This document shows, one piece after another, positions 45,153 to 64,000 of a DNA stretch of 64,000 bases (its first letter is position 1; the number at the start of each line of letters is the position of its first letter). Below the pieces are notes generated by a model. That model was given only the letters and a program-made list of their open reading frames with translations. It made no database searches and was not told the origin of the DNA. The position numbers and the translations under genes were made by a program. The stretch comes from an uncultured Mycoplasmatota bacterium (GTDB lineage Bacteria; Bacillota_I; Bacilli_A; RF39; UBA660): NCBI GenBank assembly GCA_946497145.1, contig CAMMJA010000002.1, positions 4,332-68,331 of the forward strand, read 5' to 3'.

Positions 45153-45184
45153 AAAAAGGCGTTCCTTTTTGGGAACGCTTTTTA
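45151..45184. terminator. bidirectional rho-independent terminator
   Basis: A7-GCGTTCC-TTTTTG-GGAACGC-T5 between convergent genes. Confidence 0.7.
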
Positions 45185-46319: not shown

Positions 46320-46321
46320 TT

Positions 46322-47649: not shown

Positions 47650-47661
47650 ATTTATTCCTCC

Positions 47662-48066: not shown

Positions 48067-48076
48067 ATTTCGACTC

Positions 48077-49225
48077 CTATTCATATATCGCTGTCACACT
48101 GACATTTGTCCAATAAGTGTCATGAACGATTGTTGCTGCGTTTGTGATCGCGTATATTGATAGATTAACCAATTCGTCCACTCCAGAACCCAAAAATGAA
48201 ACAGATTGATCCCAACGCGTTTGCCTTGCCGTCGCGTTGATGTTATGGTTTTCTTGATTGTAAGCCAAATAAGAACTAAATTCGGCATTATCAATTTGCA
48301 TGCCAATATTTATGATAAAAAATTTCACTCTTGAAGAAATTTTAATTTTACCACTTTCTAGAAACACCAATTCGTTTTCTTCATCGCTTTGGCTATCAAA
48401 AGTAATTGCGCTAGTTGCGTTTGCGTTACAAGTTTGATTTGATCCTTTAGTAAAAATGTTTTTTGTGAATTTATAATTGCCAATCAATTCAATTGCAGAA
48501 TTAACAGCGTCTACACTTGGGGCGTTTGTTGTTGATGAAGTCGCTAAACTATTTACAACTTCCCCGGTTTCTAACTCTGTTGATTTAACGGCCTTGATAA
48601 TATAATTAACTCCTATTGATGGTTGAGTTACATTAAACGGTTGGCTTCCTCCTTCATAAGCAACTAATAAATCGTTATACTCAGGAGATGCGTCAACACT
48701 CGTTCCTGCCATACCTCCATATCTACCGTTTGCACCTTCGCCAGTATATCTTACTTTATGACTATGGTTTGCCACCTCTTCAACTGTTTGCTCATGTTCA
48801 AACTCCCCGACAACATCGCCTAATGTTATCGTAACCTCTTTTTCATTTTTATCAGTATAAGTGCCTACACCGATGGCAACCAAGCCAGCTCTATTTGGTG
48901 TTCTGAAACTATTTGATGGTGTATCTTCTTTATTGAATCTATCACCACAAAATGTATATAAATCAGGATAATCCGCTTTTAAGTATTCATGATCAGTCCA
49001 TAGCCAAGTACCATCCGTTGGCAAAGTATCACTATGCCACTCGATCACGGTTCCGATGGGTATGCCAGATCCTTTACTACTTCCACCACCTGTAGAAATA
49101 CGTTCTGCTCCATAGTCCATATATGTATTGCCCGTTTCTTTTACATATAAAAGTTGGCCATCTTGAATTTGAACATTTTGTGCTTCTTCTTCTGTTGCTA
49201 CTCTTTTAAAAAAAACTTTTGCCCT
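48077..49225 (-). CDS. tail fibre with a phage tail-collar domain
   Basis: IGTVIEWHS...YPDLY...FRTPNRAG...GGSQPFNVTQPSIGVNYIIKA is typical of the tail-collar domain. Start uncertain: GGGAGG-N9-AGG at 49225, or upstream ATGs inside the preceding gene. Confidence 0.82.
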   Translation of the reverse strand, partial: RAKVFFKRVATEEEAQNVQIQDGQLLYVKETGNTYMDYGAERISTGGGSSKGSGIPIGTVIEWHSDTLPTDGTWLWTDHEYLKADYPDLYTFCGDRFNKEDTPSNSFRTPNRAGLVAIGVGTYTDKNEKEVTITLGDVVGEFEHEQTVEEVANHSHKVRYTGEGANGRYGGMAGTSVDASPEYNDLLVAYEGGSQPFNVTQPSIGVNYIIKAVKSTELETGEVVNSLATSSTTNAPSVDAVNSAIELIGNYKFTKNIFTKGSNQTCNANATSAITFDSQSDEENELVFLESGKIKISSRVKFFIINIGMQIDNAEFSSYLAYNQENHNINATARQTRWDQSVSFLGSGVDELVNLSIYAITNAATIVHDTYWTNVSVTAIYE

Positions 49226-49646
49226 AAATAAATTCCTCCCATTCTTCGTCACTTGTTTCATTCCAATTGATATTACTTTGAATATTCCACAAGTCGCCTT
49301 CATAATTCAAATTATTTTCTAATAAGGTTAAATTGTTAATCCATCGGTTTATATCTGAATAATCAAATGATTTTAACGGGTGATCAAATTCGTTTTTCAA
49401 CCAAATTTTATCAGGAATATATCCATTTGGTCGAAAAAAATAAAAGCTCATCGCGGAAATAGCTTTTTCAATATGATCAACCAACTGGATATAGACGAAA
49501 TCATTTAATGACCATGTATGTTTTTCATACACTGGTAATTCAGCAGTAATATCTCTAATTTGTTGGTTTAAAGTATCTATCTTGTTTTCGATAGTATTCA
49601 AATCTTGATAGCTCAAATAATTTGTTTCGTTATACTCTCTAATCAT
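49224..49646 (-). CDS. phage hypothetical protein
   Basis: 140 aa with AAAGGAG-N9-ATG. Lies between the tail-tip and fibre genes. Confidence 0.68.
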   Translation of the reverse strand: MIREYNETNYLSYQDLNTIENKIDTLNQQIRDITAELPVYEKHTWSLNDFVYIQLVDHIEKAISAMSFYFFRPNGYIPDKIWLKNEFDHPLKSFDYSDINRWINNLTLLENNLNYEGDLWNIQSNINWNETSDEEWEEFI

Positions 49647-52125
49647 TCAGAGTTACTCCTTTCAAACTTCCAGATAATCCTCCATCGAACTTCAACGTTT
49701 GTTCAGTAATTATAATATTACTAAAACCATATCTGGTCTCTAATTGTATTATATCTGTAATTTGTAGCGAAGGATCTCCGTTATACTCAATGTCGGCCAC
49801 ATAAAGACCATAGTAATCAAAAATAAATTTTGCAACTCTATTCATATCTGTTAAAGTTCTAATATACGGATTGCTAATAGAGATACTATCACCTTCAGCG
49901 ACTAAAGGATTACTTATAACCGTTTTTGTAGTCGTTTCTTCATATGTATAACCTTTTACAACCAATTCTATACTATCTTTCGTTGAAGAAAAGTATGTAA
50001 ATTTCAATCTATAGTAATTTTTTTCAATCAACGACAAATTACTTTCTGATATAACTGCTCCATCAATAGAAATTTGTAAGCTATTAAAATCGGTAGGTCT
50101 AGAATACGAGATATCAACATTATATTCATATCTGTATTCTTCTCCACTAGAAGTATATACAGTTACTTTTTTCCCTGATATAGTATCTTTAAAAACTTCT
50201 TCTTGTTCTGTTTTTTTGTTAGACATTGTTGTATTTTCAAAGACTACTTCCTTAACTAGATTTCTATTTGTCATCTTAGGATAATTCTTTTGACAGTTTA
50301 AATATAGTGTATCATATACTTCGGTTACAATATAATTTACAGAAACTGGCCCTTGAACCAAATTAGGAGTATACTTTCTTTCTGGATAAACCATAGAATT
50401 ACAAAAAATTGCCAATGACTGAATTTGCTCTGTATTGTTTTTAAAATTAGAATAACTATTATTAACCGTTCCATCGTATAATAAATTACATTTTGATTGT
50501 GCAAAAGACAATGACATTCTAGTCAAATCTTGCAACAAATCTTTAGCGTCATAGTTTCCGTTGTTAACTACTGTATATTGGCTACTATTTAATGGGCCAT
50601 CGGCTTTTAATCCAACAGTAGAATCGTTGCTGGTATAACTCGAGTAATTAAAAACTCCAAGCGGAACAAATTCATCGGCACAGTTTTTGAGCGAAATATA
50701 AGGTAAAAATTTTGTATTTTTATCTAACAATTTCAACAATGAATTTGGATTTATTTCATCAAACATACCATCGTAGTTGTTAAGATTCATTGAAAATGTG
50801 TTGTTTGGCATTTCTAAAGAAATGTTATCAACTTGTTCTGTTACAGAAAAATCTATAAGTCTTCGTCCTTCGTACAAGTAGGTAAAACCATTATCTATTT
50901 TATATATTTTTATTCTGTGGTCGTTACTCCATGACAATACATCGATTGTCATTTCTGCAATGTAATCATAGCCGTCACGAATATCTTCAAATTGAATATT
51001 ACAGATAGTTTCCGTATTGTTTCTTACTTTGATAGTTTCATCGTAATAATCTTCCAAACCATATTTTACATGTTTTATTACTACGTCAAAATTTTGGGCA
51101 TATCCATCTTGAAAATAAATAGTACACCCAAAAACACCATTATTACTAAAAATACCAATATCGTCACTTGCTGTTAATTTTTGTTTTATAACAACACTAT
51201 CCGTATCAAATGCTCCTATGTATCCTGCGTTTGGATTGACGAACGGAACGAATTTATAATTCAAATTCCCAACGACTGTTGCGTTTCTTCCATTAACAAT
51301 ATCTTCTATTTCGTTGCTTTCGGTTTGGAACAAATAATGTGAAACCAAGTTTTCTGTCATAACAATACCCGCACGTAGATATTCTTGATATATCATATTT
51401 GCAACTCCATAATATCGAGAATCGACAACATCATATACTGCCAACTCACTTATATTGAAATTGTTTGATACATCATTACCAAAAGTGATATTATTGATAT
51501 TCCCTGTATAATTACCGTTAACACAAACTGGTTGATTGACTCCTCCAACATTAACAGTAAAAATACTGTTTTCTGTTGTAGGATAGACACTAGCATACGC
51601 TCTATATCTAGTATTTAATTTTAAAATTTGAGGTTCGCCGTTTTGCATTTCATCTTCGCCATTAACAGTTGATTTGCTATATAAAGATCCATCCGTATTC
51701 ATTCCTACTTCAAATGAATAATTATCTCCACTAGCCGTAAAAAGAACGGACTGCTTGTAATCTGTAAACTCGATATCAAAAAGTAAGATCAACCCATCTT
51801 TTATATCAAGACTATATGAAATTTCCAAATGATTATTTCCAAAAACAAGAGCATAATTGTTATTTCTTGTTGGATCGTTTGGCAAAATAAAAGAACCATC
51901 TAATAAAAAACGTTGCGGTTCCAAAGTGGCATAATTTATAAAACACGGATCAGAAGAAAACACACTATCAGAATTAGTGATACTTGTTTCCTTTTCTCCA
52001 GTAATACCGACCAAGTTATTTCTGACATTGATTTCACTACCTCTATATAATGCTTTTACGCAACCTTTGATTTCACGATTTCTTGCTTTTATTGACTCTT
52101 TAAACTCTTTGCTTATATCGATCAT
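49639..52125 (-). CDS. tail-tip/baseplate structural protein (Tal position)
   Basis: About 828 aa, downstream of the tape measure and small tail protein. GAGGTG-N4-ATG (MIDISKEF). Confidence 0.78.
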   Translation of the reverse strand: MIDISKEFKESIKARNREIKGCVKALYRGSEINVRNNLVGITGEKETSITNSDSVFSSDPCFINYATLEPQRFLLDGSFILPNDPTRNNNYALVFGNNHLEISYSLDIKDGLILLFDIEFTDYKQSVLFTASGDNYSFEVGMNTDGSLYSKSTVNGEDEMQNGEPQILKLNTRYRAYASVYPTTENSIFTVNVGGVNQPVCVNGNYTGNINNITFGNDVSNNFNISELAVYDVVDSRYYGVANMIYQEYLRAGIVMTENLVSHYLFQTESNEIEDIVNGRNATVVGNLNYKFVPFVNPNAGYIGAFDTDSVVIKQKLTASDDIGIFSNNGVFGCTIYFQDGYAQNFDVVIKHVKYGLEDYYDETIKVRNNTETICNIQFEDIRDGYDYIAEMTIDVLSWSNDHRIKIYKIDNGFTYLYEGRRLIDFSVTEQVDNISLEMPNNTFSMNLNNYDGMFDEINPNSLLKLLDKNTKFLPYISLKNCADEFVPLGVFNYSSYTSNDSTVGLKADGPLNSSQYTVVNNGNYDAKDLLQDLTRMSLSFAQSKCNLLYDGTVNNSYSNFKNNTEQIQSLAIFCNSMVYPERKYTPNLVQGPVSVNYIVTEVYDTLYLNCQKNYPKMTNRNLVKEVVFENTTMSNKKTEQEEVFKDTISGKKVTVYTSSGEEYRYEYNVDISYSRPTDFNSLQISIDGAVISESNLSLIEKNYYRLKFTYFSSTKDSIELVVKGYTYEETTTKTVISNPLVAEGDSISISNPYIRTLTDMNRVAKFIFDYYGLYVADIEYNGDPSLQITDIIQLETRYGFSNIIITEQTLKFDGGLSGSLKGVTLND

Positions 52126-52126
52126 A

Positions 52127-52504
52127 TTACACCTCAATAAAATTCATGGTAACATCTGTTCTTAACACAATCTTATAAGTAACAGGATCCATCTTCTTAG
52201 ATTTACCATCTAAAGGACCACCATAAACTTCTTTTATTACTCGATTACCATAATTGTCTGTAAACTTTAATTGAAACGAATTTTGATCATACAACATTTG
52301 TAACAATGCCATTTCTTCATCGTTTAGCGCATTCCAACCGCATACAACCTTTGCACGGTTTCTTCTTACTATGTCTCGGTGTAGGTATCCTAATGAATCA
52401 ATAAAACTATTCTCTAAATGCGTGTAAGTTGGAGAATAATTTTCAGGAGAAGGAGTTGGTAAATTAAACCATCCTCCTCCAATATTTGCTTCTAATAATG
52501 CCCT
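52127..52504 (-). CDS. small tail protein (distal-tail-protein position); no canonical start
   Basis: Frame is open from 52516. Protein-like sequence runs 64 codons upstream of the first ATG (52312). AAGGAGG-N7-AGG at 52504. Confidence 0.65.
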   Translation of the reverse strand, partial: RALLEANIGGGWFNLPTPSPENYSPTYTHLENSFIDSLGYLHRDIVRRNRAKVVCGWNALNDEEMALLQMLYDQNSFQLKFTDNYGNRVIKEVYGGPLDGKSKKMDPVTYKIVLRTDVTMNFIEV

Positions 52505-52505
52505 A

Positions 52506-54467
52506 TTATACCCTCCTTATAACTGTTGATTTTCCAAGTCGATGACCTTCTTCTTCAAAATCTGGATACGTTGCTCTAGCAAATTCACGACCATTTATTT
52601 CTAAAATAATATCACCAGTATCACGACTTTCCGTTTGAATATATGGCAAAATATCCATCATAGCGTCAGTAAAAGTTTGACGCATAATATTTTGAGGAGA
52701 AACAATTTCAGGGTTACTAGAGGCACCCGGGTACTCTCCAAATTGTCCGAATGTAGGTTTATAAGCAACCGTTCCCGAAGCAAAACGTGCTCCACCACCA
52801 CCGCCACCAAATGAGCCACCAACAAATGTTTGTAATTTTCTCGTAAAAAGTCCAAGCCAATTATCAATCCTTTTTGTGCTTATTTCTGATGGAGTTATAT
52901 CCATCTCAGCTTCGATCTGTGTTCTAAATTTTTTCCCGCTTACACTTTCAATTCTGCTTACCATATCATCAATTTTATCCTTTTGTTCCTGAGTATAACG
53001 AGTTCCATCTTTCAAGTCATCTAAATAGTGATTGTATTCTTCTGCAGCTCTATCAGAAAGCCAATTTATTCTTTCTTGATTATCACCGGCTTCTTCCATT
53101 TGCGATAATATACTATCAAATGTTTTTTCTCTTATCGACATTCTTTCCTCATCCTGTTTGTTAATTTGATCCAATAATTCCTTATATTCTTTTATTTGTG
53201 ATACTAATTTGGCAATGCCGAGTGCCTCAATAAGTAACAAAGCAGTTACTATTCCATACAATCCATAACTTCCGCCTGATACACCTAAAAGACTTGCAAT
53301 TGATCCTATTGCACTTCCTACTTTCCAACCAACAAACACGGTAGCTCCTAAACCAGCAATAGTTAATAATACCTCTTTATTTTCTACACACCAATTCCAT
53401 AAATCTTTCAATTTAAGGGCTACATCTTCTATCCATTGTTTCACATTTGGATCTAATTCAATGTTTGCAAGATCAGAAAACGGATTATCTACTTTTTCAT
53501 CAGCGAAACCTCCTAAATTGTCCATTGATAAGTTAGTGATTTCATCTAATGACGTAAGTTGTTTATTTAATTCTTTTGTCGCTTGAGTCGTTCCTTTAAT
53601 ACTTTTAGTTGCCTTATTACTAGCTCTAGCAATATAGTCAATACCAGTAAATGCTTTGACAAAAACATTTACATAACCGATCAACTTCGAAATTAGGTTA
53701 GTAATAAATGTCAATACTGGCTCTAACATAGCACCGAAGCTTACCCAGTTGTTCGTTATTTTATTACTTAACTCTGTGTCATAACTTAAATAAGAACTTG
53801 CAGCTCTAGAAACAACTCTCCAAATGGACTGTATTCCAAACAAAGATAGTGCAAACCTTTTTACACTCGCTATGGATCTATCAAAACCATTTCTAATTCC
53901 TTCAGTCATATTTTGGAAAACGTTTTTTGTATCATTGGCAGACTTTTTAATATCTTTAATAGAAGACGATGCCTTTTTTATATATGTTTTATCTCCTACT
54001 TGGAATGGTTTCCCTTCGGGAATTTTTCCTATACTAGACCATGTATTGATGTATTCTTTGGTTTCATTTGCCACTTTTTTAGTTTCTTCTTTTGTTTTTG
54101 CTGTACTAGAATAAATTTTATTATATGCCTCTTGAACCTTTTGTAATGCAGTAGATAATTGGTCCATACGCTGACTTTCTTTTAAATACGTATCATCTGC
54201 GCCAGCATTATTGTAAATTTTAACTCCAGTATCGGTAGTCCATTGTCCACCTGTCGGCATTTTATACAAAACGTCTCTCTGTTCATCAATTTTTTTCTTT
54301 AAAAAAGAAAAGCTTTTTTGAAATCCAGAAGTATCTATTTTAGGTTTTATGACTGTAGAATCCTCTACCTCTTCTTTAACTCCCTTTACAATATTTTTTA
54401 CCTTATTAGCAGAGCTCTTCAATTTGGAGGTCAAATATTCTAATTCTATGCCATATTTCTCATTCCT
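52506..54467 (-). CDS. tape measure protein
   Basis: About 650 aa of coiled-coil, TM-like and G-rich segments, following the G/G-T chaperone genes. Start is either the TTG at 54434 (no SD) or GAGGG-N7-AGG at 54467. Confidence 0.85.
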   Translation of the reverse strand, partial: RNEKYGIELEYLTSKLKSSANKVKNIVKGVKEEVEDSTVIKPKIDTSGFQKSFSFLKKKIDEQRDVLYKMPTGGQWTTDTGVKIYNNAGADDTYLKESQRMDQLSTALQKVQEAYNKIYSSTAKTKEETKKVANETKEYINTWSSIGKIPEGKPFQVGDKTYIKKASSSIKDIKKSANDTKNVFQNMTEGIRNGFDRSIASVKRFALSLFGIQSIWRVVSRAASSYLSYDTELSNKITNNWVSFGAMLEPVLTFITNLISKLIGYVNVFVKAFTGIDYIARASNKATKSIKGTTQATKELNKQLTSLDEITNLSMDNLGGFADEKVDNPFSDLANIELDPNVKQWIEDVALKLKDLWNWCVENKEVLLTIAGLGATVFVGWKVGSAIGSIASLLGVSGGSYGLYGIVTALLLIEALGIAKLVSQIKEYKELLDQINKQDEERMSIREKTFDSILSQMEEAGDNQERINWLSDRAAEEYNHYLDDLKDGTRYTQEQKDKIDDMVSRIESVSGKKFRTQIEAEMDITPSEISTKRIDNWLGLFTRKLQTFVGGSFGGGGGGARFASGTVAYKPTFGQFGEYPGASSNPEIVSPQNIMRQTFTDAMMDILPYIQTESRDTGDIILEINGREFARATYPDFEEEGHRLGKSTVIRRV

Positions 54468-54834
54468 ATATTATCCCTCTCTTCTTTGCCTTTTCTATTA
54501 AAAAATCAGGCATTTTATATCTTTTTTTAGGCGGATACAGCTCAGGGCTTGCCTCTTCTGGAGTTTTAGGAAACTTATCACTAAATACTCTCCCTATTAA
54601 CACTGCATGCTTCCACAATTCGTAAGCCAATCCTTTGTTATAATTTTCTATGGTATTGATTAGTTCAAAAAGTGTCATATCATACATGTTTTCATACAAC
54701 AAACCTCTTTGCAACCCCAACTTATATAGTTGCTCTATAAAACTTCTAACGCCTCGTTCACTTTCGATAATATCTTCTCTTGAGCATGTTGTTTCATCTC
54801 TTTGGTCTGTTCTACATGCTCTTTTTTCAAAAAA
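54466..54834 (-). CDS. tail assembly chaperone T extension (-1 frameshift product G-T)
   Basis: The -1 frame is open from the slippery site through ORF 54466..54720. Confidence 0.7.
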   Translation of the reverse strand, partial: FFEKRACRTDQRDETTCSREDIIESERGVRSFIEQLYKLGLQRGLLYENMYDMTLFELINTIENYNKGLAYELWKHAVLIGRVFSDKFPKTPEEASPELYPPKKRYKMPDFLIEKAKKRGII

Positions 54835-55115
54835 CCCGAAATTACAAGCACCTCATAAATAATGTTGTTAATGATTTCATCTAGAGAATATTTTTCCAAT
54901 AAGTTATCCATTAAAGTAGTTGCTTCGTCTTTAGAAAATGTTTTGTTCGTTCCGCGAACACAATACATTAACAAAGTAGTAACAGATTTAATAGAATAAT
55001 CCTCAATAAAATCTAGTAACTTTGTATGATTTTTTTCCTCTAATTCAATAGCGTTACTTGTCGTTAATCTTAATTGATAACTTTTTTCAGCTATATCTAA
55101 TTCATAATATTTCAT
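54735..55115 (-). CDS. tail assembly chaperone G
   Basis: 126 aa between the major tail and tape measure genes. GAAGGAG-N7-ATG. Confidence 0.8.
   Translation of the reverse strand: MKYYELDIAEKSYQLRLTTSNAIELEEKNHTKLLDFIEDYSIKSVTTLLMYCVRGTNKTFSKDEATTLMDNLLEKYSLDEIINNIIYEVLVISGFLKKEHVEQTKEMKQHAQEKILSKVNEALEVL
54828..54834 (-). promoter_or_regulatory. -1 programmed frameshift slippery heptamer U_UUU_UUG
   Basis: Minus sense GGT_TTT_TTG_AAA_AAA in the 0-frame of gene G. The position near the 3' end of G is canonical for tail chaperone frameshifting. Confidence 0.65.
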
Positions 55116-55134
55116 ATTTCTTCTCCTTCATAAT

Positions 55135-55163
55135 AAAAAAGGGGCATAGTTGCCTATGACCCT
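55135..55163 (-). terminator. terminator after the major tail gene
   Basis: Minus sense GGG-U-CAUAG-GCAA-CUAUG-CCC(C) followed by U6. Overlaps the stop codon. Confidence 0.65.
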
Positions 55164-55615
55164 ATTGGTATTGTTTTTTCTGGTTCTCCAATTGGATTTA
55201 ACGTCATGCTAAATCCTAGCAAATCGCCAGTACTTCCACCTTTGATCATAGTAGTAACTTTACTTTTAAATGAAATTGTAATTCCGTTTGAGTAAGTTAA
55301 CTTCCAAAATACTGGTGTATCGTCATCTTCTAAATCACTGGCTAATTTAATGTTAGATTCAGCAGTCGGATCTTCCATGTTAAATTCAAAAGTATATTTT
55401 TGTACATCTTGTAAACCTGGAATGGAAGTTTTATATTTTTTGTTATCCATGGTTGTGGTTTCTATGTCCTCTGGTTCACTTCCGATGTCCGGAACCTGTG
55501 TGATTCCCTTTATTTGAGTATATTGTCCATCTGACGTTGAGCTATATTCTAGTTTAGTACCAGAAAATGAATGATAATTTAATTGTTCTTCCCTATTTGA
55601 TTCCTCCTTAAACAA
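55154..55615 (-). CDS. major tail protein (TP901-1/phi13-like)
   Basis: IKGITQVPDIGSEPEDIETTTMDNKKYKTSIPGL resembles this family. The TTG at 55615 lies upstream of the SD. The alternative start is AAGGAGG-N8-AGG at 55594. Confidence 0.85.
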   Translation of the reverse strand: MFKEESNREEQLNYHSFSGTKLEYSSTSDGQYTQIKGITQVPDIGSEPEDIETTTMDNKKYKTSIPGLQDVQKYTFEFNMEDPTAESNIKLASDLEDDDTPVFWKLTYSNGITISFKSKVTTMIKGGSTGDLLGFSMTLNPIGEPEKTIPIGS

Positions 55616-55979
55616 TAAAAGTATTATTTATTTGATTGTAAATTCCATAACCTGTAACACGAATCTTTCTAACACCATTATCTACAGAAACATCGTTATA
55701 ACTGGTTTTGAAATTTATTTCCTTTAATTTTTTTTGAATATCGTATCTTGCTTTATCAATAATAGATAAAGTATTCTCCTCTGATAATTCTTTTCTTTTT
55801 ACATATCCAATAATGCTAACTCGCATTGTGTAATTTTTATCAAGATCACTGTCTTGGTAATCTTCTTGTGTCGTAAAACTAAAGTAAGTTGTTTCTTCCT
55901 CAAGGATATCATCTGGCATTTCAGGGGTAACTTCGATATTCTCGATTTCTTCTAATTTTCCTTGAATAAATTCTCTCAT
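55608..55979 (-). CDS. tail completion/terminator-like protein
   Basis: Called from position and size (123 aa). AAGGAGG-N7-ATG. Confidence 0.65.
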   Translation of the reverse strand: MREFIQGKLEEIENIEVTPEMPDDILEEETTYFSFTTQEDYQDSDLDKNYTMRVSIIGYVKRKELSEENTLSIIDKARYDIQKKLKEINFKTSYNDVSVDNGVRKIRVTGYGIYNQINNTFIV

Positions 55980-56482
55980 TTTATTACCTCCTTTAACGCC
56001 TTACCTGTATTTTTTTTATAGTTGTTGATATTTTTATTTAGTGCTGGACGAAAATGTGGTTTAGCTGGTTGAGCGTAAGCGACATAGAACTCATTACCGT
56101 TTATTACTATTTTTCTCCCTATTGCACGATTTACAGATTTAACAGGCACAAACCAATACTGATACCCACTTTCGATAAACGTTTTAGTATGTCCAATATG
56201 TGGCTCTAAAGCATAAATACCTGTACCATTTTCTATCATGCGTCCAACAGCATATCCATCGCTAGTCAAATCAGTATATACCGAAGTTTTTATGCTATCA
56301 CTGTTCACTTCTGTGTCGCTTATTTTTATACTAGAGATATACTCACCACTTTTAGCAGGTGCATATTGTATAACATCCTCCCATATTTGTTTAGCTGTCT
56401 CTCGTTGAGATTCAACTAGTTGCTTTGGTAAGGTGTCAATTATTTTCGACACATCTATAACCATCTTTTCAAATGATTTCAT
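55976..56482 (-). CDS. HK97 gp10-family head-tail joining protein
   Basis: APAKSGEYISSIK...ENGTGIYA...KPHFRPAL is typical of HK97 gp10. Confidence 0.78.
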   Translation of the reverse strand: MKSFEKMVIDVSKIIDTLPKQLVESQRETAKQIWEDVIQYAPAKSGEYISSIKISDTEVNSDSIKTSVYTDLTSDGYAVGRMIENGTGIYALEPHIGHTKTFIESGYQYWFVPVKSVNRAIGRKIVINGNEFYVAYAQPAKPHFRPALNKNINNYKKNTGKALKEVIK

Positions 56483-56811
56483 ATTCGCTCGATATCCACT
56501 CTGCTATCTGTAACGGAAATGATTTTATAAATCACTCCATTAACAAATATAAAATACTTGCTAACATTATCTTTTTTGTTATTAACTTTGGTTAATAAAA
56601 ATTTTTCTAAATCTTTTAGTGGACTCGAAATGCGTTTTACATTAACCAAATTTGATCCATAAATACTCGCTGACACCTCATCGTTTAAATATTGCGACTG
56701 TACCTTATATTTTTGAATAAGAGTATATTCAGCAACAACTCTCGCGCCATTAGGATCTTTGGAATAATTGGCCTTTTTTAATTCTACGGTTTCTAAATAT
56801 CTAAGTAACCT
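56479..56811 (-). CDS. head closure/head-tail adaptor protein (SPP1 gp16-like); no canonical start
   Basis: Protein-like frame is open from 56817 and the only canonical start is a GTG at 56676. AGG at 56811 overlaps the upstream TAG. Confidence 0.6.
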   Translation of the reverse strand, partial: RLLRYLETVELKKANYSKDPNGARVVAEYTLIQKYKVQSQYLNDEVSASIYGSNLVNVKRISSPLKDLEKFLLTKVNNKKDNVSKYFIFVNGVIYKIISVTDSRVDIERI

Positions 56812-57124
56812 AAAAGATCACTCGCTTCCCATTTTTGATAATATTATTTCGCATTTTTTCTATGTTATCTTCAAAAGAAATACTATGACCACTTTCAGAA
56901 ATGGAACTGGAACCTTCAGCACCTCTTCGTAAATACTCAGCAATAACACATTGACTGATCTCTGGTTCTAAAGCAGATAAACTCTTTCTATTAGAAATAG
57001 ATAAAGCCACGCTAGATACGTTATCAATAATTTCTCGCAAAGTATCAACATCGTCTCGATAATTGTCGGCTAAATTACGAGTTACATTGTCTAAAATCTT
57101 TCTTTTGATTTCATCTTCTGTCAT
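56810..57124 (-). CDS. head-tail connector (gp6/gp15-like)
   Basis: 104 aa in the position after the capsid gene. DNVSSVALSIS...AEYLRRGAEG is connector-like. Confidence 0.72.
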   Translation of the reverse strand: MTEDEIKRKILDNVTRNLADNYRDDVDTLREIIDNVSSVALSISNRKSLSALEPEISQCVIAEYLRRGAEGSSSISESGHSISFEDNIEKMRNNIIKNGKRVIF

Positions 57125-57144
57125 ACAACACCTACTTTCTTACT

Positions 57145-57174
57145 AACAAAAGAAAGGATTACTATTAGTAATCC
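57145..57174 (-). terminator. terminator after the capsid unit
   Basis: Minus sense GGAUUACU-AAU-AGUAAUCC followed by UUUCUUUUGUU. Confidence 0.6.
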
Positions 57175-57315
57175 CTATTTCTTGTTAGTTTTTTTAGTCG
57201 AAACAACTTTCTCTACTATTTCTTGATAAGCATTGCTTTTGATCATTTGCTTTAAAGTGAATTGATTGGTTACAAATAAGATCGCACCAGTCTCAATACA
57301 TTTAAATTTTTTCAT
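57175..57315 (-). CDS. small phage ORF (46 aa), below the track cutoff
   Basis: AAGGAAG-N8-ATG then MKKFKCIETGAILFVTNQFTLKQMIKSNAYQEIVEKVVSTKKTNKK, translated by hand. Confidence 0.4.
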   Translation of the reverse strand: MKKFKCIETGAILFVTNQFTLKQMIKSNAYQEIVEKVVSTKKTNKK

Positions 57316-57339
57316 AGTTTGTTCTTCCTTTCGTCTTTA

Positions 57340-58329
57340 TTAAGCATCGGCTCTAGTATAGTATGTCTCAGTACTGTCAAACTCCGCGCTAGATGGAACT
57401 TGTGTATATACACCAAAATCATAAGTGTAATAAGTAGTTCCTGAAGCAAATTCTTCGATTTCCGCTTTGGTGTAAACATAATCACAGTCATACAAAATAA
57501 CTTCTGGAACTAATGCTTGACCGCCTGAGTATGCAAATAATTCAAGTGCAATAGCGTCGTCAAATGGAATTTTTTCAGCATCATATTCGCTTAAATAATT
57601 TGGCAATGCAATTGCTTCTTCTTTTAACATAACCATGGCTGGTACATCGCTAGGCATACGGTTTGATTCATATGTGATCACTGACTGATACATACCAATT
57701 GCTCCATTTGATGGTACAGTTCCGTTAGGTAGACTATCTAAATAATCTTTCAATTCAGTTTTGTAAGTAGTGTTAACTACTAATGCTAACAAATCTTCAT
57801 CTACGCCATCAATGAAATCGTTATTGGTCACTTTGGCTGTACTGATCAATCTGTCAACAATCTTTTTAACTGTATCTCCAGATCCTCTAGCAACTTGAAT
57901 ACCTGCATCACGTGCAATTCGAAAGAATTTTCTATCATAATAAGTTTTGATGACATCTTTGGCGTTTTTACTTCTCTTTTGTGCCATACCATCAATACCA
58001 TATAGTTTTAGATCCTTTTCTTGTAATTCTTCGATGATTTCTTTGTCATCATCAATATTTACAGTTACAGGTTTAGCTTTTACTTGGTTTCCTTTGCCTT
58101 GTGCTCTAGCCGTTCCCTTGTCTTGTAACTTAGCATTAGCAAATCTTTTATATTCTACACTACCAGTAGTAGGATCCCCGCTACCATTCTTCGCTTTCAA
58201 TGCCTCGCTAACACATCCTGATTGAATATTTTCAATCACTCCGTCTAATGTTTCTGCTAAATTATCCATAACATCTGGTGTTAGATAATCAGCAATGTTT
58301 AATGAACTTTGTCTTGCCCTATCAATCAT
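57340..58329 (-). CDS. major capsid protein
   Basis: 329 aa following the scaffold gene. The ATG at 58329 abuts the SD with zero spacing. In-frame AGG at 58320 sits 9 nt after the SD. Confidence 0.86.
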   Translation of the reverse strand: MIDRARQSSLNIADYLTPDVMDNLAETLDGVIENIQSGCVSEALKAKNGSGDPTTGSVEYKRFANAKLQDKGTARAQGKGNQVKAKPVTVNIDDDKEIIEELQEKDLKLYGIDGMAQKRSKNAKDVIKTYYDRKFFRIARDAGIQVARGSGDTVKKIVDRLISTAKVTNNDFIDGVDEDLLALVVNTTYKTELKDYLDSLPNGTVPSNGAIGMYQSVITYESNRMPSDVPAMVMLKEEAIALPNYLSEYDAEKIPFDDAIALELFAYSGGQALVPEVILYDCDYVYTKAEIEEFASGTTYYTYDFGVYTQVPSSAEFDSTETYYTRADA

Positions 58330-58348
58330 CTCCTTTTATTTTTGGCAA

Positions 58349-58864
58349 TTAAATACTTGTTCTTGATACTCGGTTTTTTGCACGAGTATTGTTCATTACA
58401 TTTTTAGGACTTGGTTCTTTTAATCGCTCGTTAACTCTTTTTTCTACTGCCTTATCAAAACTTGTTTTAATTGTTTTTAAAGAATTATTTAAGTCTTCGG
58501 CTGTAATAGATCTAAAGTTAATCAAGTCAACTAAAGAAACGTCCAATTCTGTTTCTTGTGCAATCTTAACTGCTTGCTCTTTCAATTCATAAGCATTCAA
58601 CTTAGCGATTGCTTCTTCTTTTTCTTTTCGATCTTTTTCGGCTTGATATTTTAGCTTTTCTTCCGCCTTCATATTAGCCATCTTTTCTGCTTCTGTTCTT
58701 TGCTCTTCTTGTTCTTTTAACAATTCTTCTCGAATCTTTTGCTTTTCAGAAGCCACTATCTTGTTCAATTCGTCACGAGTAAAAGTTTTTTCTTCTTTCT
58801 TCGTTTCTGTTTGAACATTTTCTGCTGTTGCGGTAGCAGTTACCATACTTTCGTTATTTTCCAT
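58349..58864 (-). CDS. scaffolding protein
   Basis: 171 aa, highly charged coiled coil (DUF4355-like). AAGGAGG-N6-ATG. Confidence 0.85.
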   Translation of the reverse strand: MENNESMVTATATAENVQTETKKEEKTFTRDELNKIVASEKQKIREELLKEQEEQRTEAEKMANMKAEEKLKYQAEKDRKEKEEAIAKLNAYELKEQAVKIAQETELDVSLVDLINFRSITAEDLNNSLKTIKTSFDKAVEKRVNERLKEPSPKNVMNNTRAKNRVSRTSI

Positions 58865-58928
58865 AACTTTCCTCCTTAACTTTTACGGTGTTATAACCAA
58901 ACATTCAATCCGTTACGGTGGATTAGAC

Positions 58929-59158
58929 CAAAATAAAAGAACGATTTCTCGCTCTGGTGCTATTTATAAGCACTGTACCAATAGCATACCGTTGACTGGT
59001 CGAATGGGGAGTTCCACTCGATTCCCATAGGATTCTATACTTAAAGCTCCACCTAACTTGCCTTTATATGTACACTTGGCGTTCTATCGTCATAGAACAG
59101 TTTAAGGTACCTATCCGGGCGTATATGCTATCAGTACACTACCTATAAAAGTAGTGTA
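58929..59158 (-). ncRNA. candidate structured RNA (~230 nt), class unknown
   Basis: ORF-free gap in a densely packed operon. My hand count gives about 40% GC. 5' hairpin at 59158-59135. A 15-bp helix pairs 59137-59123 with 58989-58975. Internal hairpins. The 3' GAAA-tetraloop stem (58955-58938) is followed by UUUAUUUU. Confidence 0.5.
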
Positions 59159-59170
59159 AACAAAAAGATA

Positions 59171-59332
59171 CTACTTATTTTTAGTATCTTTCTTTGCTTT
59201 TTCATCTATAAACTTTCTAAACTCCTCGATATTTTTTTTATCTTTTTCAGTGAAAGGAACTTTAATTTTCAGCGGTTTAACATCCTGATATTCTGTCCAT
59301 CGCGGATCTTGAAATAGTTCTTTTTCTTTCAT
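59171..59332 (-). CDS. small phage ORF (53 aa), below the track cutoff
   Basis: ATGA overlap with the minor head protein stop. MKEKELFQDPRWTEYQDVKPLKIKVPFTEKDKKNIEEFRKFIDEKAKKDTKNK, translated by hand. Confidence 0.5.
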   Translation of the reverse strand: MKEKELFQDPRWTEYQDVKPLKIKVPFTEKDKKNIEEFRKFIDEKAKKDTKNK

Positions 59333-60804
59333 TCTAACTCCTCTATCAGAAAATAATGTTTATCGCCTTTGGTATAATAATCTCTTGTAATAAACTTCAT
59401 ACCATATTGATATAGAACTTCTGCCTCATTTGACATTTGATTATATTCTAACATGTTTCTAGCTTTTTTGCTACCTTTTACATAAAAGAAAACATTTGCT
59501 TTGGAATTATATCCTGGTTTTAAAGAATACGCTTCAAAAGATTTTGCCTCATATACTTCTCCGACTGGATGTTGTGAAATAACAGTCTGTAATGCATGAT
59601 TATCTACCTGCAAAACTCTTGTGATAAATTCATCATTTTTGGAATTGTAGAAAGGTTGCTTATTTAGCGCTGTATATAAGTTTTTAACTAATCTTCTTTC
59701 TTTTCGATTTAATCTTTCTCCTCTATACATTTTTCTATTGATATCATAGAAATCGGCACTCTCCCATTTATTAATAGCGCTTTTTTCATTCCAATTCATA
59801 AGACTTTTATTTAACTTATCCCTAGTCATATCTAATTGATATGTTACTGTGCTTCTACACCAGTGAAAGTGATTGTTGATTGGTGGTAAATTCGCGCCTG
59901 CAACAAGACCAAATATTTTATAATTTACAATTCGTCCATCATCGTAACTATATCGTTGAAAAGTGTTCCAATCGTTCACAGAAAAAACTTGCTCGTCAAG
60001 CGATCTGCACATTTCCGTAGTTCTCTGATCTATTTCTGCTATAAATCTTACCTTGGCATTTTTGTCAACTTTTTTATAACCTTCCACCAAAGCATTGTTT
60101 ACTAATGATGTTACTTGTAGTTCTAAATCCCCACTAATTTTATCACCGTTAATATTCAAGTAACGTTTCCTTTGAGCATTTAAAATTGAGTCGTATATTG
60201 TTTTGTCGACAACCGGTTTACGGTCTTGTTGAATATCTATAACTGCTTGGCGATAAATTTGATCAGCATTGCTTAACATTGTAGCTTCAACATAATCATT
60301 CCAAATGTATCCCTTAGGATTAGGAAGTGCAAGCAACGATAACAACAAATAGTTAGGTAATCTACTAGGTTTCGATCTGTCGTTAGTTGCTCGATACACT
60401 TCTTCCTGCCCTTGTGCATATTTTGTATTTGCTACCTCATTAAACAATTTGTTTTCGTACTTATCTAGTTTAGAATGGTTTTTCACATAGGTTTTGTAAA
60501 TCAATAAGTGTAATATTTCAAAATTTTTTACTCTACTCCTATTATGAATAGAATTTGCTAAATACTTGAAATATCCACTTAACAATCCGTCATCAGACCA
60601 TTCTTCAATCAATAAATCGATTTTTTTCTTTTGTTCTGATGCGGCATATTGAAAAATATTATCTTTGTTTATATCCAGCGAATCAAAAATTGCTTGAATA
60701 TCATTTTTTAACCGTTGATTTAGTTTTATATATTTCGTTTTAAACTGTTTTAGTAACTTGTCAGTGTCATTCCATCTCGTTTGTAGTATCTGCTCTCTCG
60801 TCAT
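59329..60804 (-). CDS. minor head protein (SPP1 gp7/Mu F-like) fused to a C-terminal ADP-ribosyltransferase domain
   Basis: Central NxHxxCRS-type motif (PINNHFHWCRST). The C-terminus carries YDINRKMYRG, ITRV, SFEAYS and NEAEV, matching an R / S-x-S / E-x-E layout. Confidence 0.85.
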   Translation of the reverse strand: MTREQILQTRWNDTDKLLKQFKTKYIKLNQRLKNDIQAIFDSLDINKDNIFQYAASEQKKKIDLLIEEWSDDGLLSGYFKYLANSIHNRSRVKNFEILHLLIYKTYVKNHSKLDKYENKLFNEVANTKYAQGQEEVYRATNDRSKPSRLPNYLLLSLLALPNPKGYIWNDYVEATMLSNADQIYRQAVIDIQQDRKPVVDKTIYDSILNAQRKRYLNINGDKISGDLELQVTSLVNNALVEGYKKVDKNAKVRFIAEIDQRTTEMCRSLDEQVFSVNDWNTFQRYSYDDGRIVNYKIFGLVAGANLPPINNHFHWCRSTVTYQLDMTRDKLNKSLMNWNEKSAINKWESADFYDINRKMYRGERLNRKERRLVKNLYTALNKQPFYNSKNDEFITRVLQVDNHALQTVISQHPVGEVYEAKSFEAYSLKPGYNSKANVFFYVKGSKKARNMLEYNQMSNEAEVLYQYGMKFITRDYYTKGDKHYFLIEELE

Positions 60805-62284
60805 CTACTTCTTCCTCTTTTTCAGCATTTGTATTATCTCCAAACTTTTGAGTTCTTTCCAAGTTTTTATTAAAATTCTCGTCTGTTTCCTCGTCTCTTA
60901 ACGCTATTTCACTTTCGCTGTCCAGCTCGTACGGCAAATGATCAATCACTGTTTTATCGCTTAATAGGCCACGTAGTTTTAACCAGCCATCAATAATTTC
61001 TTGATTATTCTGTGGCAAATTACGAGTTAGGATAATTTCAATATCTCTAAAATCATACTTAGTATTCTTTTTAGTATTTATTCTATCTACAATATTTTCC
61101 CACATTCTTAACAATTCTTTTTTGAACAATTTATCTGCTTGAATCAATACTTGCTCTAAAGGGAAAAATTTCTTTTCTAAGGCGCTTGAATTATCGGCAT
61201 TAGTAAAACCTTGATCTGTTACGTTTGGTACCCCAGAAATCATAAGAGCCATATCTAAACACGTCTTTTTGTGATTTTCGCTGGCTGTATCATTGACATT
61301 CTTGATTATCCAGTCTATATCGCCATCACTTTTATCAGGTGTATAAAACACCTTTGCATTTAATATTAAATTATCTTCTTCTATTCTAGCGGGATTTTGA
61401 ATCATTTTTACATTTCCAAATTCGTCAACAACAATATTTCCGTTTTCGTCTCTTTCTTCTATCATCACTTCATTTTGAGGTTTATAACCGATTACTTTTA
61501 ATTTTGCATCGTCGTTGTATTGAAAAGTATTAGCGTTATTTCGAATAACTTGTTCGTACTTATCTATCAAAGTAATAACATTTTCAAATATTCCTATGTT
61601 ATCAGGGTTTTCAACTACTAAAGCAGGAATAAGCAACCATTTAACATCTTGCCTTTCGTCCTCTAATTCCTTAAAATTTTCCGATTGTAGTTTTTCATTA
61701 ACATAGTATCTTTTAAAATCTTCAGTAATCAATTCAACTTTATTCACAGCATTTCCGTTTGCATCAGTTTCTTCCCAACTTCTTAATACTCCAATCAATT
61801 GTCTTGGAGTTGAATAATCCCAAATACCAATCGTGTTCAATGCACTAGTATGTGCATATACGATCTCGTTGTCACTATTTTCATAAAGCAAACCATATCC
61901 TGCTCGCATTATTAAGTAATCCTTGGCTACATCATAAAAAAAACTAGAATTATCATTGTAGTCTTTAATATAATCTAAAATCACTTGAAATGAATCGGCG
62001 TCGTTATTTTCTCCAAATATTTTATCAAAAAATTTTTGTATAATATTTCTTTTTATCTCGTTTTCTTCTTTCTTTACTTTATAAACAGGATCTTTACCTG
62101 CAAAATAACCGCAGGCAATATTGGAAATGTAATATTCAAGAGCGATTTTAACGTCACTTAAATCTTTTTTTCTAGTATATCTGTTATATAATTCTTTTCG
62201 CTCATTCCATTCTTTTTCTGCTTCATTCAATAATTGAGAAATATTTTCTTCTTTTTCTATATATTCTTTTGTATATTGTAACCT
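60767..62284 (-). CDS. portal protein (SPP1 gp6-like); no canonical start near the SD
   Basis: Portal-like sequence. Frame is open from 62302. AAGGAGG (62299-62293)-N8-AGG at 62284. The first canonical start is a TTG at 62230 without an SD. Confidence 0.86.
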   Translation of the reverse strand, partial: RLQYTKEYIEKEENISQLLNEAEKEWNERKELYNRYTRKKDLSDVKIALEYYISNIACGYFAGKDPVYKVKKEENEIKRNIIQKFFDKIFGENNDADSFQVILDYIKDYNDNSSFFYDVAKDYLIMRAGYGLLYENSDNEIVYAHTSALNTIGIWDYSTPRQLIGVLRSWEETDANGNAVNKVELITEDFKRYYVNEKLQSENFKELEDERQDVKWLLIPALVVENPDNIGIFENVITLIDKYEQVIRNNANTFQYNDDAKLKVIGYKPQNEVMIEERDENGNIVVDEFGNVKMIQNPARIEEDNLILNAKVFYTPDKSDGDIDWIIKNVNDTASENHKKTCLDMALMISGVPNVTDQGFTNADNSSALEKKFFPLEQVLIQADKLFKKELLRMWENIVDRINTKKNTKYDFRDIEIILTRNLPQNNQEIIDGWLKLRGLLSDKTVIDHLPYELDSESEIALRDEETDENFNKNLERTQKFGDNTNAEKEEEVDDERADTTNEME

Positions 62285-62297
62285 ACTATTCTCCTCC

Positions 62298-63707
62298 TTA
62301 AATTATTTTGGTGTATCCAAAACTCATGGTATTAGGATTGCTATTTTCGTAAACGCCTGTTGTACAATCGGGTGCATCATCATGTTCATTTTTTCCTTCA
62401 CGTTGATATTTTTTCATCGACTTTGCATATTCAGGCCATCTCGTTTCCCAATCAATGGGGAAAAAAACATTGTTCATAACTCCTGTACTGTTGGACAAGA
62501 TTCTAGCTTGTTTATTTTCCGATTGATGAAACCAATCTATTTTTGTATGATGATTCTTCCTTTCTTTCAACTCTCTGGTAACATTCCTAGCAAATCCACG
62601 ACCGCCGTTATTAGATTCAATTTTTGCGTAACCAACACGATCTTTAGTTAACATATCAGCAACCGCTGGTTCTGTAATTTCCATTGGGTCCTTTGTAAAA
62701 ATAATATCTATAACGTATTTTTGATTATTAAAGGAAACTCCATAATTCATTGAACATAAATAATCATCTCCTTCATCAGCCGTATCTGTATAGTTCATTA
62801 TATATTTAAAAGGTGGAACTTTCTCATACTGATATGTCATAAATTTACTGTACAAACGTCCTTTTACGTCAATTGGCTCTTGTTGATAATTGGCTTCAAC
62901 AATATCCTTATTCATATTTTTTATTTTGATGTCATAATCTTTGCGTGATAAAATTTCTTCACATAACATAGTTCCGTCTTCTTGTAACGCTTTATGTTTA
63001 ATTATCCTGACTAAATCACCAAATTCTTCTATAATTTTTCCTGCCAAATCGTTTGTAGCCCATCGAGTCATAAAAACAATAACTTTCCAATTTCCTTCCA
63101 GACGAGAAAGCATAGTGTTATTAAACCAATCCCAAATTTTCTCTAATGTTCGCTCGTTGTATACTTCTTCAGCACTTTTAATAACATCATCAATTATCAA
63201 TATATTAGCACCAAATCCAGTAGCCGTTCCTCCCGGAGATGTAGCCAAATAATTTTTTTGTTTACTTCCTCTTAATGCCCATAAGTTAGCGCTTGCCTCT
63301 CCATACTTGATCATAGTTTCAGGAAATATATCGTTATACACCAATCTAGTTTTATCAATCTTTATTTCGGATATCGTATCTCTAACTTGCCTTGCAAACA
63401 TAGTAGACAAGATTTCATTATATGATCCCGTCATAATCTTTAATTCTTTATTTTTTCCAAATAACCATTCACAAGTATTTTTACTAGTAAAACTCTTCCC
63501 GTGACGTGGTGGCTCATTTAAAATTAAAAATTTATGATTCATATCATTTTCAATAAAATCTTGTATTTCTTCACATATATTTTTTAGATATATCCTGTCA
63601 TCTTTATAAAAAGTAGGATATCTTAATCGGCAATAGTCATATAAATTTCTTCGTGCTAATTCTTTTTTTGCTTCAATCTGTATATATTTAGGTATTTTAC
63701 TTTCCAT
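62298..63707 (-). CDS. terminase large subunit
   Basis: Walker-A-like PPRHGKS, IIDD Walker B and a C-terminal nuclease region, in the position between terS and portal. Confidence 0.92.
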   Translation of the reverse strand: MESKIPKYIQIEAKKELARRNLYDYCRLRYPTFYKDDRIYLKNICEEIQDFIENDMNHKFLILNEPPRHGKSFTSKNTCEWLFGKNKELKIMTGSYNEILSTMFARQVRDTISEIKIDKTRLVYNDIFPETMIKYGEASANLWALRGSKQKNYLATSPGGTATGFGANILIIDDVIKSAEEVYNERTLEKIWDWFNNTMLSRLEGNWKVIVFMTRWATNDLAGKIIEEFGDLVRIIKHKALQEDGTMLCEEILSRKDYDIKIKNMNKDIVEANYQQEPIDVKGRLYSKFMTYQYEKVPPFKYIMNYTDTADEGDDYLCSMNYGVSFNNQKYVIDIIFTKDPMEITEPAVADMLTKDRVGYAKIESNNGGRGFARNVTRELKERKNHHTKIDWFHQSENKQARILSNSTGVMNNVFFPIDWETRWPEYAKSMKKYQREGKNEHDDAPDCTTGVYENSNPNTMSFGYTKII

Positions 63708-64000
63708 TAGCCAATCTTCTCAATTCTTCCTCATTCAAATTAGCATATGGATTAGATATGTTCCCGCTATGACTAAATTCTTGTTTGTCTTCCCAACCGA
63801 AGTTATTTTTCAAATTAAAAATAACACCTGTTGCATTAGGAAAAAATAATCTTTCTTCTGCGAATTTTTCGACTCTATTGCGGGCTTTTTTTATCGTGAG
63901 GAAAAATTTATCATCTTTGGAATAATTTAATAACGATTTTCTGTCCATATCCAAAGCCAACGCTAAACCACTCATTGTATATGGCATATGTTTTTCGTCG
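63697..64000 (-). CDS. terminase small subunit (may extend beyond the window)
   Basis: The HTH-like GLALALDMDRKSLLNY...IKKARNRVEKFAEERL is typical of terS. The frame is open to the window end. Confidence 0.75.
   Translation of the reverse strand, partial: DEKHMPYTMSGLALALDMDRKSLLNYSKDDKFFLTIKKARNRVEKFAEERLFFPNATGVIFNLKNNFGWEDKQEFSHSGNISNPYANLNEEELRRLANGK

Follow-up and report, generated by a model that had tools for sequence, protein, structure and literature searches.

AGG in the start position of prophage late genes and a phage-encoded initiator-like tRNA(CCU) that probably reads it

Introduction

In bacteria, all natural start codons described to date (AUG, GUG, UUG and rarer near-cognates) are, to our knowledge, decoded by one initiator tRNA, whose anticodon is CAU. 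A stretch of 64,000 nucleotides (nt) from an uncultured Mycoplasmatota bacterium (GenBank assembly GCA_946497145.1, contig CAMMJA010000002.1, positions 4,332 to 68,331), referred to here in its whole length as the window, raises the question of how genes are translated whose start position holds AGG. Positions ~45,000-64,000 of the window are the late region of a siphovirus-type prophage, encoded on the minus strand, and the remainder is host DNA. Seven of the late genes have AGG where a start codon is expected. The sequence comparisons described below make it likely, with a probability that we would put at about 0.8, that a phage-encoded initiator tRNA with the anticodon CCU, tRNA(CCU), reads AGG as the start codon of the virion genes.

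Results

AGG codons in the start position of seven late genes

The seven genes encode the portal, major capsid, head closure, major tail, tape measure, small tail and tail fibre proteins (Table 1). A Shine-Dalgarno (SD) sequence was present 7-9 nt 5' of the AGG at six of the seven sites, with a match of 6 or 7 bases at four of those six; the head closure gene had a weak SD. The base at position -1 was T at all seven sites. The AGG overlapped the upstream stop codon as TAGG in the head closure, tape measure and fibre genes, and the portal, capsid and major tail sites had no overlap with an upstream stop. The portal frame had no canonical in-frame start between its upstream TAA and the AGG, the nearest being a TTG 18 codons downstream, and the next canonical in-frame codon of the head closure gene was a GTG 45 codons downstream. 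The terminase, scaffold, chaperone and lysis genes retained ATG.

These sites were first pointed out in a preliminary description of the window. When we read the sites and computed their geometry, all seven were found at the positions and spacings given there, as were the three TAGG overlaps. Two details required correction. The T preceding AGG, described as constant, was confirmed in the window but not in the related phages introduced below, among which the major tail gene of contig L007 had A and the minor capsid 2 genes of L011, L014, L015 and L016 had C. The fibre gene, listed as lacking a canonical start, did have its AGG as described, but its frame also contained ATG, ATG and GTG upstream at 49303, 49261 and 49252, all within the preceding gene.

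AGG occupied the start slot in 7 of 21 late genes compared to 0 of 30 host genes. Per 10,000 codons, internal AGG was found 16 times in host genes and 26 times in phage genes, and the binomial probability of 7 AGG start slots in 21 genes was ~1e-14 under a codon-frequency null and 7e-9 under a trinucleotide-frequency null. The rarity of AGG in host genes, noted earlier from a manual scan, was upheld: no AGG occurred in host open reading frames (ORFs) of 813 and 556 codons, and in the leuS frame AGG was present only upstream of the start. A crude scan for GGAG-N5-11-TAGG yielded 9 matches versus 3.9 expected. Because this motif enrichment is weak, the strength of the argument lies in the position of the AGG codons within ORFs and in their conservation, not in the motif count.

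Table 1. Late genes with AGG in the start position, and the partial terS gene, with positions in the window
Feature	Position	Strand	Start site and context
Portal (SPP1-type, 505 amino acids (aa) from AGG)	60767..62299	-	AAGGAGG(62299-62293)-N8-AGG(62284-62282)
Major capsid	57340..58335	-	AAGGAG(58335-58330)-N9-AGG(58320-58318); in-frame ATG at 58329 abuts SD
Head closure (110 aa)	56479..56823	-	AGG(56811-56809), TTTTAGG with TAG stop of head-tail adaptor gene; weak SD
Major tail (146 aa, phrog_158)	55154..55609	-	AAGGAGG(55609-55603)-N8-AGG(55594-55592); TTG at 55615 is 5' of SD
Tape measure (653 aa)	52506..54479	-	GAGGG(54479-54475)-N7-AGG(54467-54465); overlaps TAG of frameshifted chaperone product; next TTG at 54434
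Small tail-region protein (125 aa, phrog_1194)	52127..52518	-	AAGGAGG(52518-52512)-N7-AGG(52504-52502); next ATG 64 codons downstream
Tail fibre (382 aa)	48077..49240	-	GGGAGG(49240-49235)-N9-AGG(49225-49223); overlaps TAG stop of upstream gene
terS, 3' part	63697..64000	-	Cut by window end; tRNA(UAU)-tRNA(CCU) pair expected immediately upstream, outside the window

Conservation of the AGG codons in related phages

A search with the portal protein led to five related contigs, L006-L010 (75-98% nt identity). The portal of L006 was 98% identical and those of L007 and L008 were 82% identical; L009 and L010 have the portal cluster of L007/L008 and the terminase module of the window. The portal AGG was kept in all five contigs, with differing flanks. 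The capsid AGG was kept in L006-L009, and the ATG that abuts the SD was replaced by GTG in L007-L009. Likewise, the AGG codons of the head closure and major tail genes were kept in L006, L007 and L009, and those of the tape measure (with altered flanks) and small tail protein genes were kept in L006 and L009. The SD, spacer and following codons varied among L006-L010 while the AGG triplet stayed.

More distant relatives, which lack the trait, have a canonical codon at or near the same place. In L003 and L004 the codon aligned to AGG was ATG for the portal, head closure and major tail genes, and the head closure ATG of L003 formed a TAATG overlap. The portals of L001 and L002 start 3-5 codons upstream of the aligned codon, and the capsid homologue of L001 has an ATG start 2-3 codons upstream. 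For the small tail protein, positions 8-124 of 125 in the PHROG profile phrog_1194 aligned with residues 7-123 counted from the codon after AGG. No relative contig reached the fibre gene, and its homologues were taken from an exhaustive profile search of representative proteins. At least 10 homologues aligned residue 2 to residue 2. In seven aligned homologues the Met fell on the AGG; five of them read MAKV.F.R.. and two read MTKVLFKR, compared to [AGG]AKVFFKRV in the window. A tblastn search of GenBank phages with the fibre returned no N-terminal information.

Because the ATG or Met of the relatives, the fibre homologues and the PHROG profile fall on or near AGG, the AGG codons would be at true N-termini. 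Judged from these alignments, the stretch from each AGG to the following canonical start encodes conserved protein, and the AGG takes the place of the ATG of relatives. The earlier suggestion that AGG occupies the ATG slot therefore holds in the relatives as well, with the AGG kept in L006-L010 and the ATG or Met of homologues on it or within a few codons.

Standard gene callers miss or shorten these genes. The portal of the window (P0001, 487 aa) is called from the downstream TTG and is thus 18 codons short, and the portals of two close relatives are also called short, while the portal search returned hundreds of relatives at 60-65% with longer N-termini. The portal calls in P0001-P0003 and in L006, L007 and L009 begin at a TTG or Met 18-33 codons inside the gene or at a GTG within the SD. 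The head closure gene is uncalled in L006 and L007 and shortened in L009, and the major tail, tape measure and small tail protein genes are shortened in L006, L007 and L009. P0242, a fibre homologue with 78% identity, has a called N-terminus (MNK...IRTSMLQS...) unlike the MAKVFF-type of the family and may be another mis-called start in a relative with AGG starts.

A tRNA(CCU) with initiator features upstream of the late genes

All five contigs L006-L010 carry a tRNA(UAU) gene and a tRNA(CCU) gene directly upstream of terS, with either of the two terminase modules (Terminase_3 in L006-L008; a 469-aa TerL in L009 and L010). The tRNA(CCU) is at 3433-3507 in L006 and at 8106-8180 in L009, where terS starts at 8211. 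Its sequence in L007-L010 is CGCAGGGUAGUGUAGUGGUAACAUUUCAGUCUCCUAAGCUGAAGAUUGACGGUUCGAUUCCGUCCCCUGCAACCA. No tRNA(CCU) is present within the 64,000 nt of the window, where ARAGORN detected tRNA-Asn and tRNA-Thr only. Positions 63984-59777 of the window are collinear with 8307-12511 of L009 at 77% nt identity, and because of this collinearity the window's own tRNA(CCU) is expected at ~64,110-64,185, which is ~110-185 nt beyond the window end. We infer that this very prophage carries it.

The tRNA(CCU) has a C1xA72 mismatch, G2:C71, C3:G70 and A73. In E. coli these elements direct formylation and keep the tRNA out of elongation. The 1:72 position was C x A, as in E. coli metZWV, and never a standard pair in all five distinct CCU tRNA sequences (11 loci); G2:C71, C3:G70 and A73 were invariant in the alignment with metZWV. 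Position 20 was U rather than the arginine identity element A20 (D-loops AGUGGUA and AGUUCGGUA), and the anticodon loop, CUCCUAA, was the loop of the initiator tRNA (tRNAfMet) with A35 changed to C. The cloverleaf on the alignment with metZWV was 94% paired, with compensatory changes at 10 pairs. In a comparison with a 12-member panel, C1xA72 was found only in the CCU tRNAs, in E. coli tRNAfMet and in the phage tRNA of L018; the remaining panel tRNAs had a Watson-Crick pair (ten) or G:U (one) at 1:72. The preliminary description had proposed an initiator-like tRNA with a CCU anticodon and a 1:72 mismatch as a phage factor encoded outside the window, and just such a tRNA is found upstream of terS in the five relatives.

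The neighbouring tRNA(UAU) lies 3-4 nt upstream of tRNA(CCU) (3353-3428 in L006, 8150-8226 in L007, 8026-8102 in L009) and has a normal U1:A72 pair. It is not present in the second phage group described below, and it is therefore probably an ordinary AUA-decoding elongator outside the start system.

A second phage group and the co-occurrence of tRNA(CCU) with AGG starts

To see whether the tRNA by itself would predict AGG starts, IMG/VR was scanned with a pattern that combined an initiator acceptor stem and a CCU loop; 6 contigs of 2.9 million matched. Five of the six (L011, L012, L014-L016) come from an unrelated group of phages, which has a P22-type coat and Phage_min_cap2. Their tRNA (type B, the tRNA of L006-L010 being type A) is 77 nt long and along its whole length shares 84% identity with the E. 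coli initiator genes, which were the sole genes matched, at a median of four places per genome. The E. coli match that was inspected consisted of three tandem tRNA-Met genes beside amiC, which we take to be metZWV. Four of the five type B contigs had conserved SD-N6-9-AGG starts on the portal gene, the minor capsid 2 gene and a small ORF adjacent to the tRNA; an AGG start was also present on the coat gene in two of those four and on two further genes in L015. The type B AGG starts have no canonical alternative, and every one lies on the strand of the tRNA, downstream of it. The fifth contig, L012, is a short locus in which only the first small ORF after the tRNA is visible, and that ORF has an AGG start. 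The Pfam profiles of the type B minor capsid 2 and coat proteins begin at AGG.

Combining both groups, tRNA(CCU) and SD-AGG starts occurred in the same genome at ten relative loci of two lineages; L013 has the tRNA on a short contig. No start-slot AGG was found in the seven relatives that lack the tRNA (L001-L005, L020 and L021), which had canonical starts only, and L020 and L021 share the TerL type of the window. Further scans of IMG/VR for the exact 40-nt tRNA pattern and for a CGCGGGG/CCCCGCAA acceptor with a CCU anticodon gave no match, and an anticodon-arm scan gave five contigs, all already found. Because these scans added no contigs, the system is rare in IMG/VR.

Two other tRNA genes were noted. 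L018 (GenBank MT835577.1, a human faecal phage scaffold) carries at 2871-2947 a tRNA that is 93.5% identical to E. coli tRNAfMet, with C1xA72, an intact stem of three G-C pairs and the anticodon CAA, cognate to UUG (loop CUCAAAA). The L018 tRNA suggests that non-CAU anticodons may be more widespread among phage initiator tRNAs. L017 (301-377, the third metZWV copy of E. coli strain 510016) has the anticodon stem TCAGG...CCCGA, with A29 opposite C41; E. coli tRNAfMet has G29:C41.

Internal AGG codons

Internal AGG codons of the phage genes aligned with AGA, CGC, AAA or AAG in relatives and fell on Arg or Lys codons in 9 of 10 tested position-by-relative groups. In the host, an S41 protease has an AGG that aligned with the conserved Arg in the motif IDVRGNPGG of B. 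subtilis CtpB, whose structure is solved. The earlier view that AGG still encodes Arg in elongation is therefore sustained for phage and host genes. Bacilli of the UBA7642 clade reassign AGG to Met, and their tRNA(CCU) has A73, G2:C71 and C3:G70 and no A20 (PMC8629427). In that clade AGG is the dominant Met codon, at 209-235 per 10,000 (PMC8629427). An AGG-to-Met reassignment was our initial idea for the window and was ruled out by the internal AGG codons on Arg/Lys and by the rarity of AGG (16-26 per 10,000).

The late region and its surroundings

The late genes begin with terS, truncated at the window end, and continue with terL, portal, minor head protein, scaffold, capsid and connector proteins, followed by the tail tube, chaperone, tape measure, tail, fibre and lysis genes. 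Under translation table 11, none of the late ORFs is interrupted. The host DNA that makes up the rest of the window comes from a bacterium with a guanine-plus-cytosine (GC) content of 32%, and the closest match to its LeuS was 77% identical. The prophage is a member of a small clade of siphovirus-like phages whose hosts are uncultured low-GC Bacillota; a megablast of the late region against GenBank phages returned no match.

The tail assembly chaperone gene (54735-55115) contains a canonical in-frame -1 frameshift heptamer, T TTT TTG, at 54828-54834 on the minus strand. The chaperone -1 ORF ends at the TAG at 54468-54466, which overlaps the AGG of the tape measure gene. A mosaic breakpoint was located at ~62333 on the minus strand (5213 in L006), where homology to L006-L008 begins ~35 nt before the terL stop. 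Upstream of the breakpoint, the window, L009 and L010 have the 469-aa TerL with a GP3_package terS, and L006-L008 have a 419-aa Terminase_3 module. The GC content fell to 24.6% at 42001-44000, a stretch flanked by the host GNAT/YjbR genes on one side and by the prophage's lysis end on the other, and this stretch may be the attachment-site region or the prophage boundary.

Discussion

We consider it probable, with slightly less confidence than in the reading of AGG by tRNA(CCU) itself, that these phages have a natural orthogonal initiation system with a private AGG start, in which the main virion proteins depend on a phage product and internal AGG remains Arg. The clade would have moved the start codon of its main virion genes from AUG to AGG and would carry a dedicated initiator tRNA, the tRNA(CCU), derived from a bacterial tRNAfMet. 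Because the tRNA gene heads the late (packaging and structural) block, synthesis of the tRNA would coincide with, or slightly precede, that of the late mRNAs. The 30S subunit would be placed by an ordinary SD 7-9 nt upstream, or by termination-reinitiation at the TAGG overlaps. The tRNA would be aminoacylated, more probably with Met than with Arg, and formylated. In the P site the charged tRNA(CCU) would pair cognately with AGG, and host elongator tRNAs would go on reading internal AGG as arginine. The seven virion genes would then be translated efficiently only when the phage tRNA is present. If so, the private AGG start arose or spread in at least two unrelated phage structural modules. The position of the tRNA gene at the head of the late block and the identity of the AGG genes as the main virion building blocks suggest a purpose in temporal gating, insulation or priority of late translation.

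That an anticodon-mutant initiator redirects initiation is established laboratory knowledge. In engineered E. coli, the initiator tRNA(CCU)/AGG pair gave the largest fold-change in 5 of the 6 strains described, from 35- to 402-fold (bioRxiv 10.64898/2026.04.16.719103). In the strain Nissle 1917 it gave the second largest fold-change, with a raw signal above that of AUG (bioRxiv 10.64898/2026.04.16.719103). According to work cited in PMC8629427, a change at position 35 is the least damaging anticodon change for methionyl-tRNA synthetase (MetRS), and the choice of AGG may be explained by this.

Several observations weigh against initiation by tRNA(CCU). The tRNA(CCU) of this prophage is assigned to it by synteny, at a position outside the window. 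The capsid, major tail and fibre genes have in-frame canonical codons nearby, which are conceivable starts even though their spacing from the SD is poor. MetRS normally depends strongly on the CAU anticodon. The three G-C pairs in the anticodon stem that the preliminary description had expected were not found: the stem is A29:U41, G30:C40 and U31:G39 in L006-L012 and L014-L016, where only G30:C40, the reported critical pair, is retained, and it is G:C, G:C and U:G in L013. Natural initiators with au/GC/gu anticodon stems do exist, and G30 is reportedly the critical base (PMC5389676). However, 31:39 is U:G in tRNA(CCU), whereas the naturally reported initiator stem has G:U. The type A tRNA has also diverged; it is 71-73% identical to E. 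coli tRNAfMet, and a blastn search of E. coli genomes with type A alone gave no match. Its 11:24 pair is U:A in L007-L010, as it is in L013, compared to A:U in L006, L011, L012 and L014-L016. Finally, the L006 copy has C33 (loop CCCCUAA), while U33, which is near-universal in tRNAs, is present in every other copy. The coverage of the L006 contig is ~5.7x, and C33 is either a real variant or an error.

An alternative, to which we assign a small chance, is that the host tRNAfMet(CAU) reads AGG as a deliberately weak near-cognate start, as the preliminary description had offered, and that tRNA(CCU) is a rare-codon arginine elongator. AGG is one position away from AUG, ARAGORN labels the tRNA Arg(CCT), its neighbour tRNA(TAT) completes a classic rare-codon pair, and the phage genes do hold internal AGG (26 per 10,000 codons). 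However, an arginine elongator would not be expected to have C1xA72, G2:C71, C3:G70 and A73 and to lack A20, nor would the type B copies be expected to match the E. coli initiator genes alone, at 84% identity, in phages without a UAU tRNA. AGG is among the weakest near-cognate starts in bacteria, which makes such a start implausible for capsid and tail tube proteins. Moreover, AGG starts were confined to contigs with tRNA(CCU), and this strict co-occurrence disfavors a weak start read by the host.

The chance is slimmer that the genes are expressed with no start codon at AGG, whether by a frameshift or readthrough fusion to the upstream protein or by codon-independent termination-reinitiation. 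The three TAGG overlaps and the near absence of an SD at the head closure gene would fit this explanation. Against it, six of the seven sites have an SD 7-9 nt upstream, four with a 6- or 7-base match, the portal, capsid and major tail sites are clear of an upstream stop, and the AGG triplet is invariant while its neighbors change. The CCU initiator-like tRNA and the second phage group would also be left unexplained.

Slightly less probable again is that AGG has been reassigned to methionine in the host or phage. There is a precedent in gut Bacilli (PMC8629427), but here internal AGG falls on Arg/Lys codons in 9 of 10 position-by-relative groups and on an invariant Arg of the host S41 protease, and its frequency is 16-26 per 10,000 compared to 209-235 in the reassigned clade. 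Artefact or decay, in the form of sequencing or assembly errors or of start-codon knockouts in a dead prophage, is scarcely credible; the genomes are metagenome assemblies, some at 5-8x coverage, but at least four assemblies, made independently from different samples, contain the same AGG codons at 75-98% nt identity and with evident coding constraint, a second lineage shares the trait, and random change cannot have produced seven identical T-to-G substitutions at start codons alone. Also rejected was an artefact of sequencing or methylation acting systematically at CATA/TATG, since the prophage has other, intact T-ATG starts and the independent assemblies are in agreement.

Initiation at AGG by the phage tRNA(CCU), if true, would provide a second, virus-encoded initiator with another anticodon, which would be a new type of natural departure from the standard code, one that operates at initiation and not at sense or stop codons. 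It would also be a switch that ties virion protein synthesis to the phage's own tRNA, and such a switch could control timing, keep the genes silent in lysogeny, give them priority over host mRNAs or free them from the host initiator pool. The tRNA/AGG pair could further be a ready-made, evolution-tested part for orthogonal initiation in synthetic biology.

Comparison with known systems

The closest tRNA by sequence features is tRNAfMet itself (E. coli metZWV/metY). The phage tRNAs share with it C1xA72, G2:C71, C3:G70, A73 and an encoded CCA. A11:U24 is shared by L006 and type B, and type B has the D-arm pattern and the same variable loop and T-loop. Unlike tRNAfMet, the phage tRNA has the anticodon CCU instead of CAU, an au/GC/ug stem and A:U at 4:69, and its gene is carried by a phage, where it heads the late genes.

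Engineered orthogonal initiator tRNAs, of which the amber initiator is one, resemble the phage system in that an anticodon change moves the start codon, and the same AGG/CCU pair has been used. Those are laboratory constructs on E. coli tRNA with an intact stem of three G-C pairs, whereas the phage system would be natural, evolved and coupled to a defined set of virion genes.

The AGG-to-Met reassignment of UBA7642 (Shulgina and Eddy 2021, PMC8629427) shares the codon, the anticodon, A73, G2:C71, C3:G70, the lack of A20 and the setting in gut, low-GC Bacillota. In that clade the change is to an elongator and affects all AGG codons genome-wide, whereas here it would be limited to the initiation slot. 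Start codons are not discussed for the UBA7642 reassignment (PMC8629427).

Two further systems involve phage tRNAs. The first is stop-codon recoding, in which suppressor tRNAs of crAss-like and Lak phages recode stop codons in late genes so that TAG or TGA is read as an amino acid. As in those phages, a phage tRNA would alter how a codon that clusters in late or structural genes is read, possibly as a gate on their translation. However, recoding acts on termination and elongation, whereas the present system would act on initiation, with no in-frame stops and with tRNAs that have sense anticodons. The second is the set of rare-codon tRNAs carried by phages (Arg-CCU/UCU, Ile-UAU), which tRNA(CCU) resembles in its anticodon, its neighboring tRNA(UAU) and its annotation label. 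In contrast to these, tRNA(CCU) has an initiator acceptor stem and no A20, and it tracks AGG starts rather than the internal AGG load.

A full-text literature search, which left most subscription journals uncovered, returned no natural AGG starts and no phage initiator tRNA with a non-CAU anticodon. Within that coverage, the pairing of AGG starts with a phage tRNA(CCU) is new as a natural system, and its nearest counterparts are the engineered initiator pairs and the elongator AGG-to-Met reassignment.

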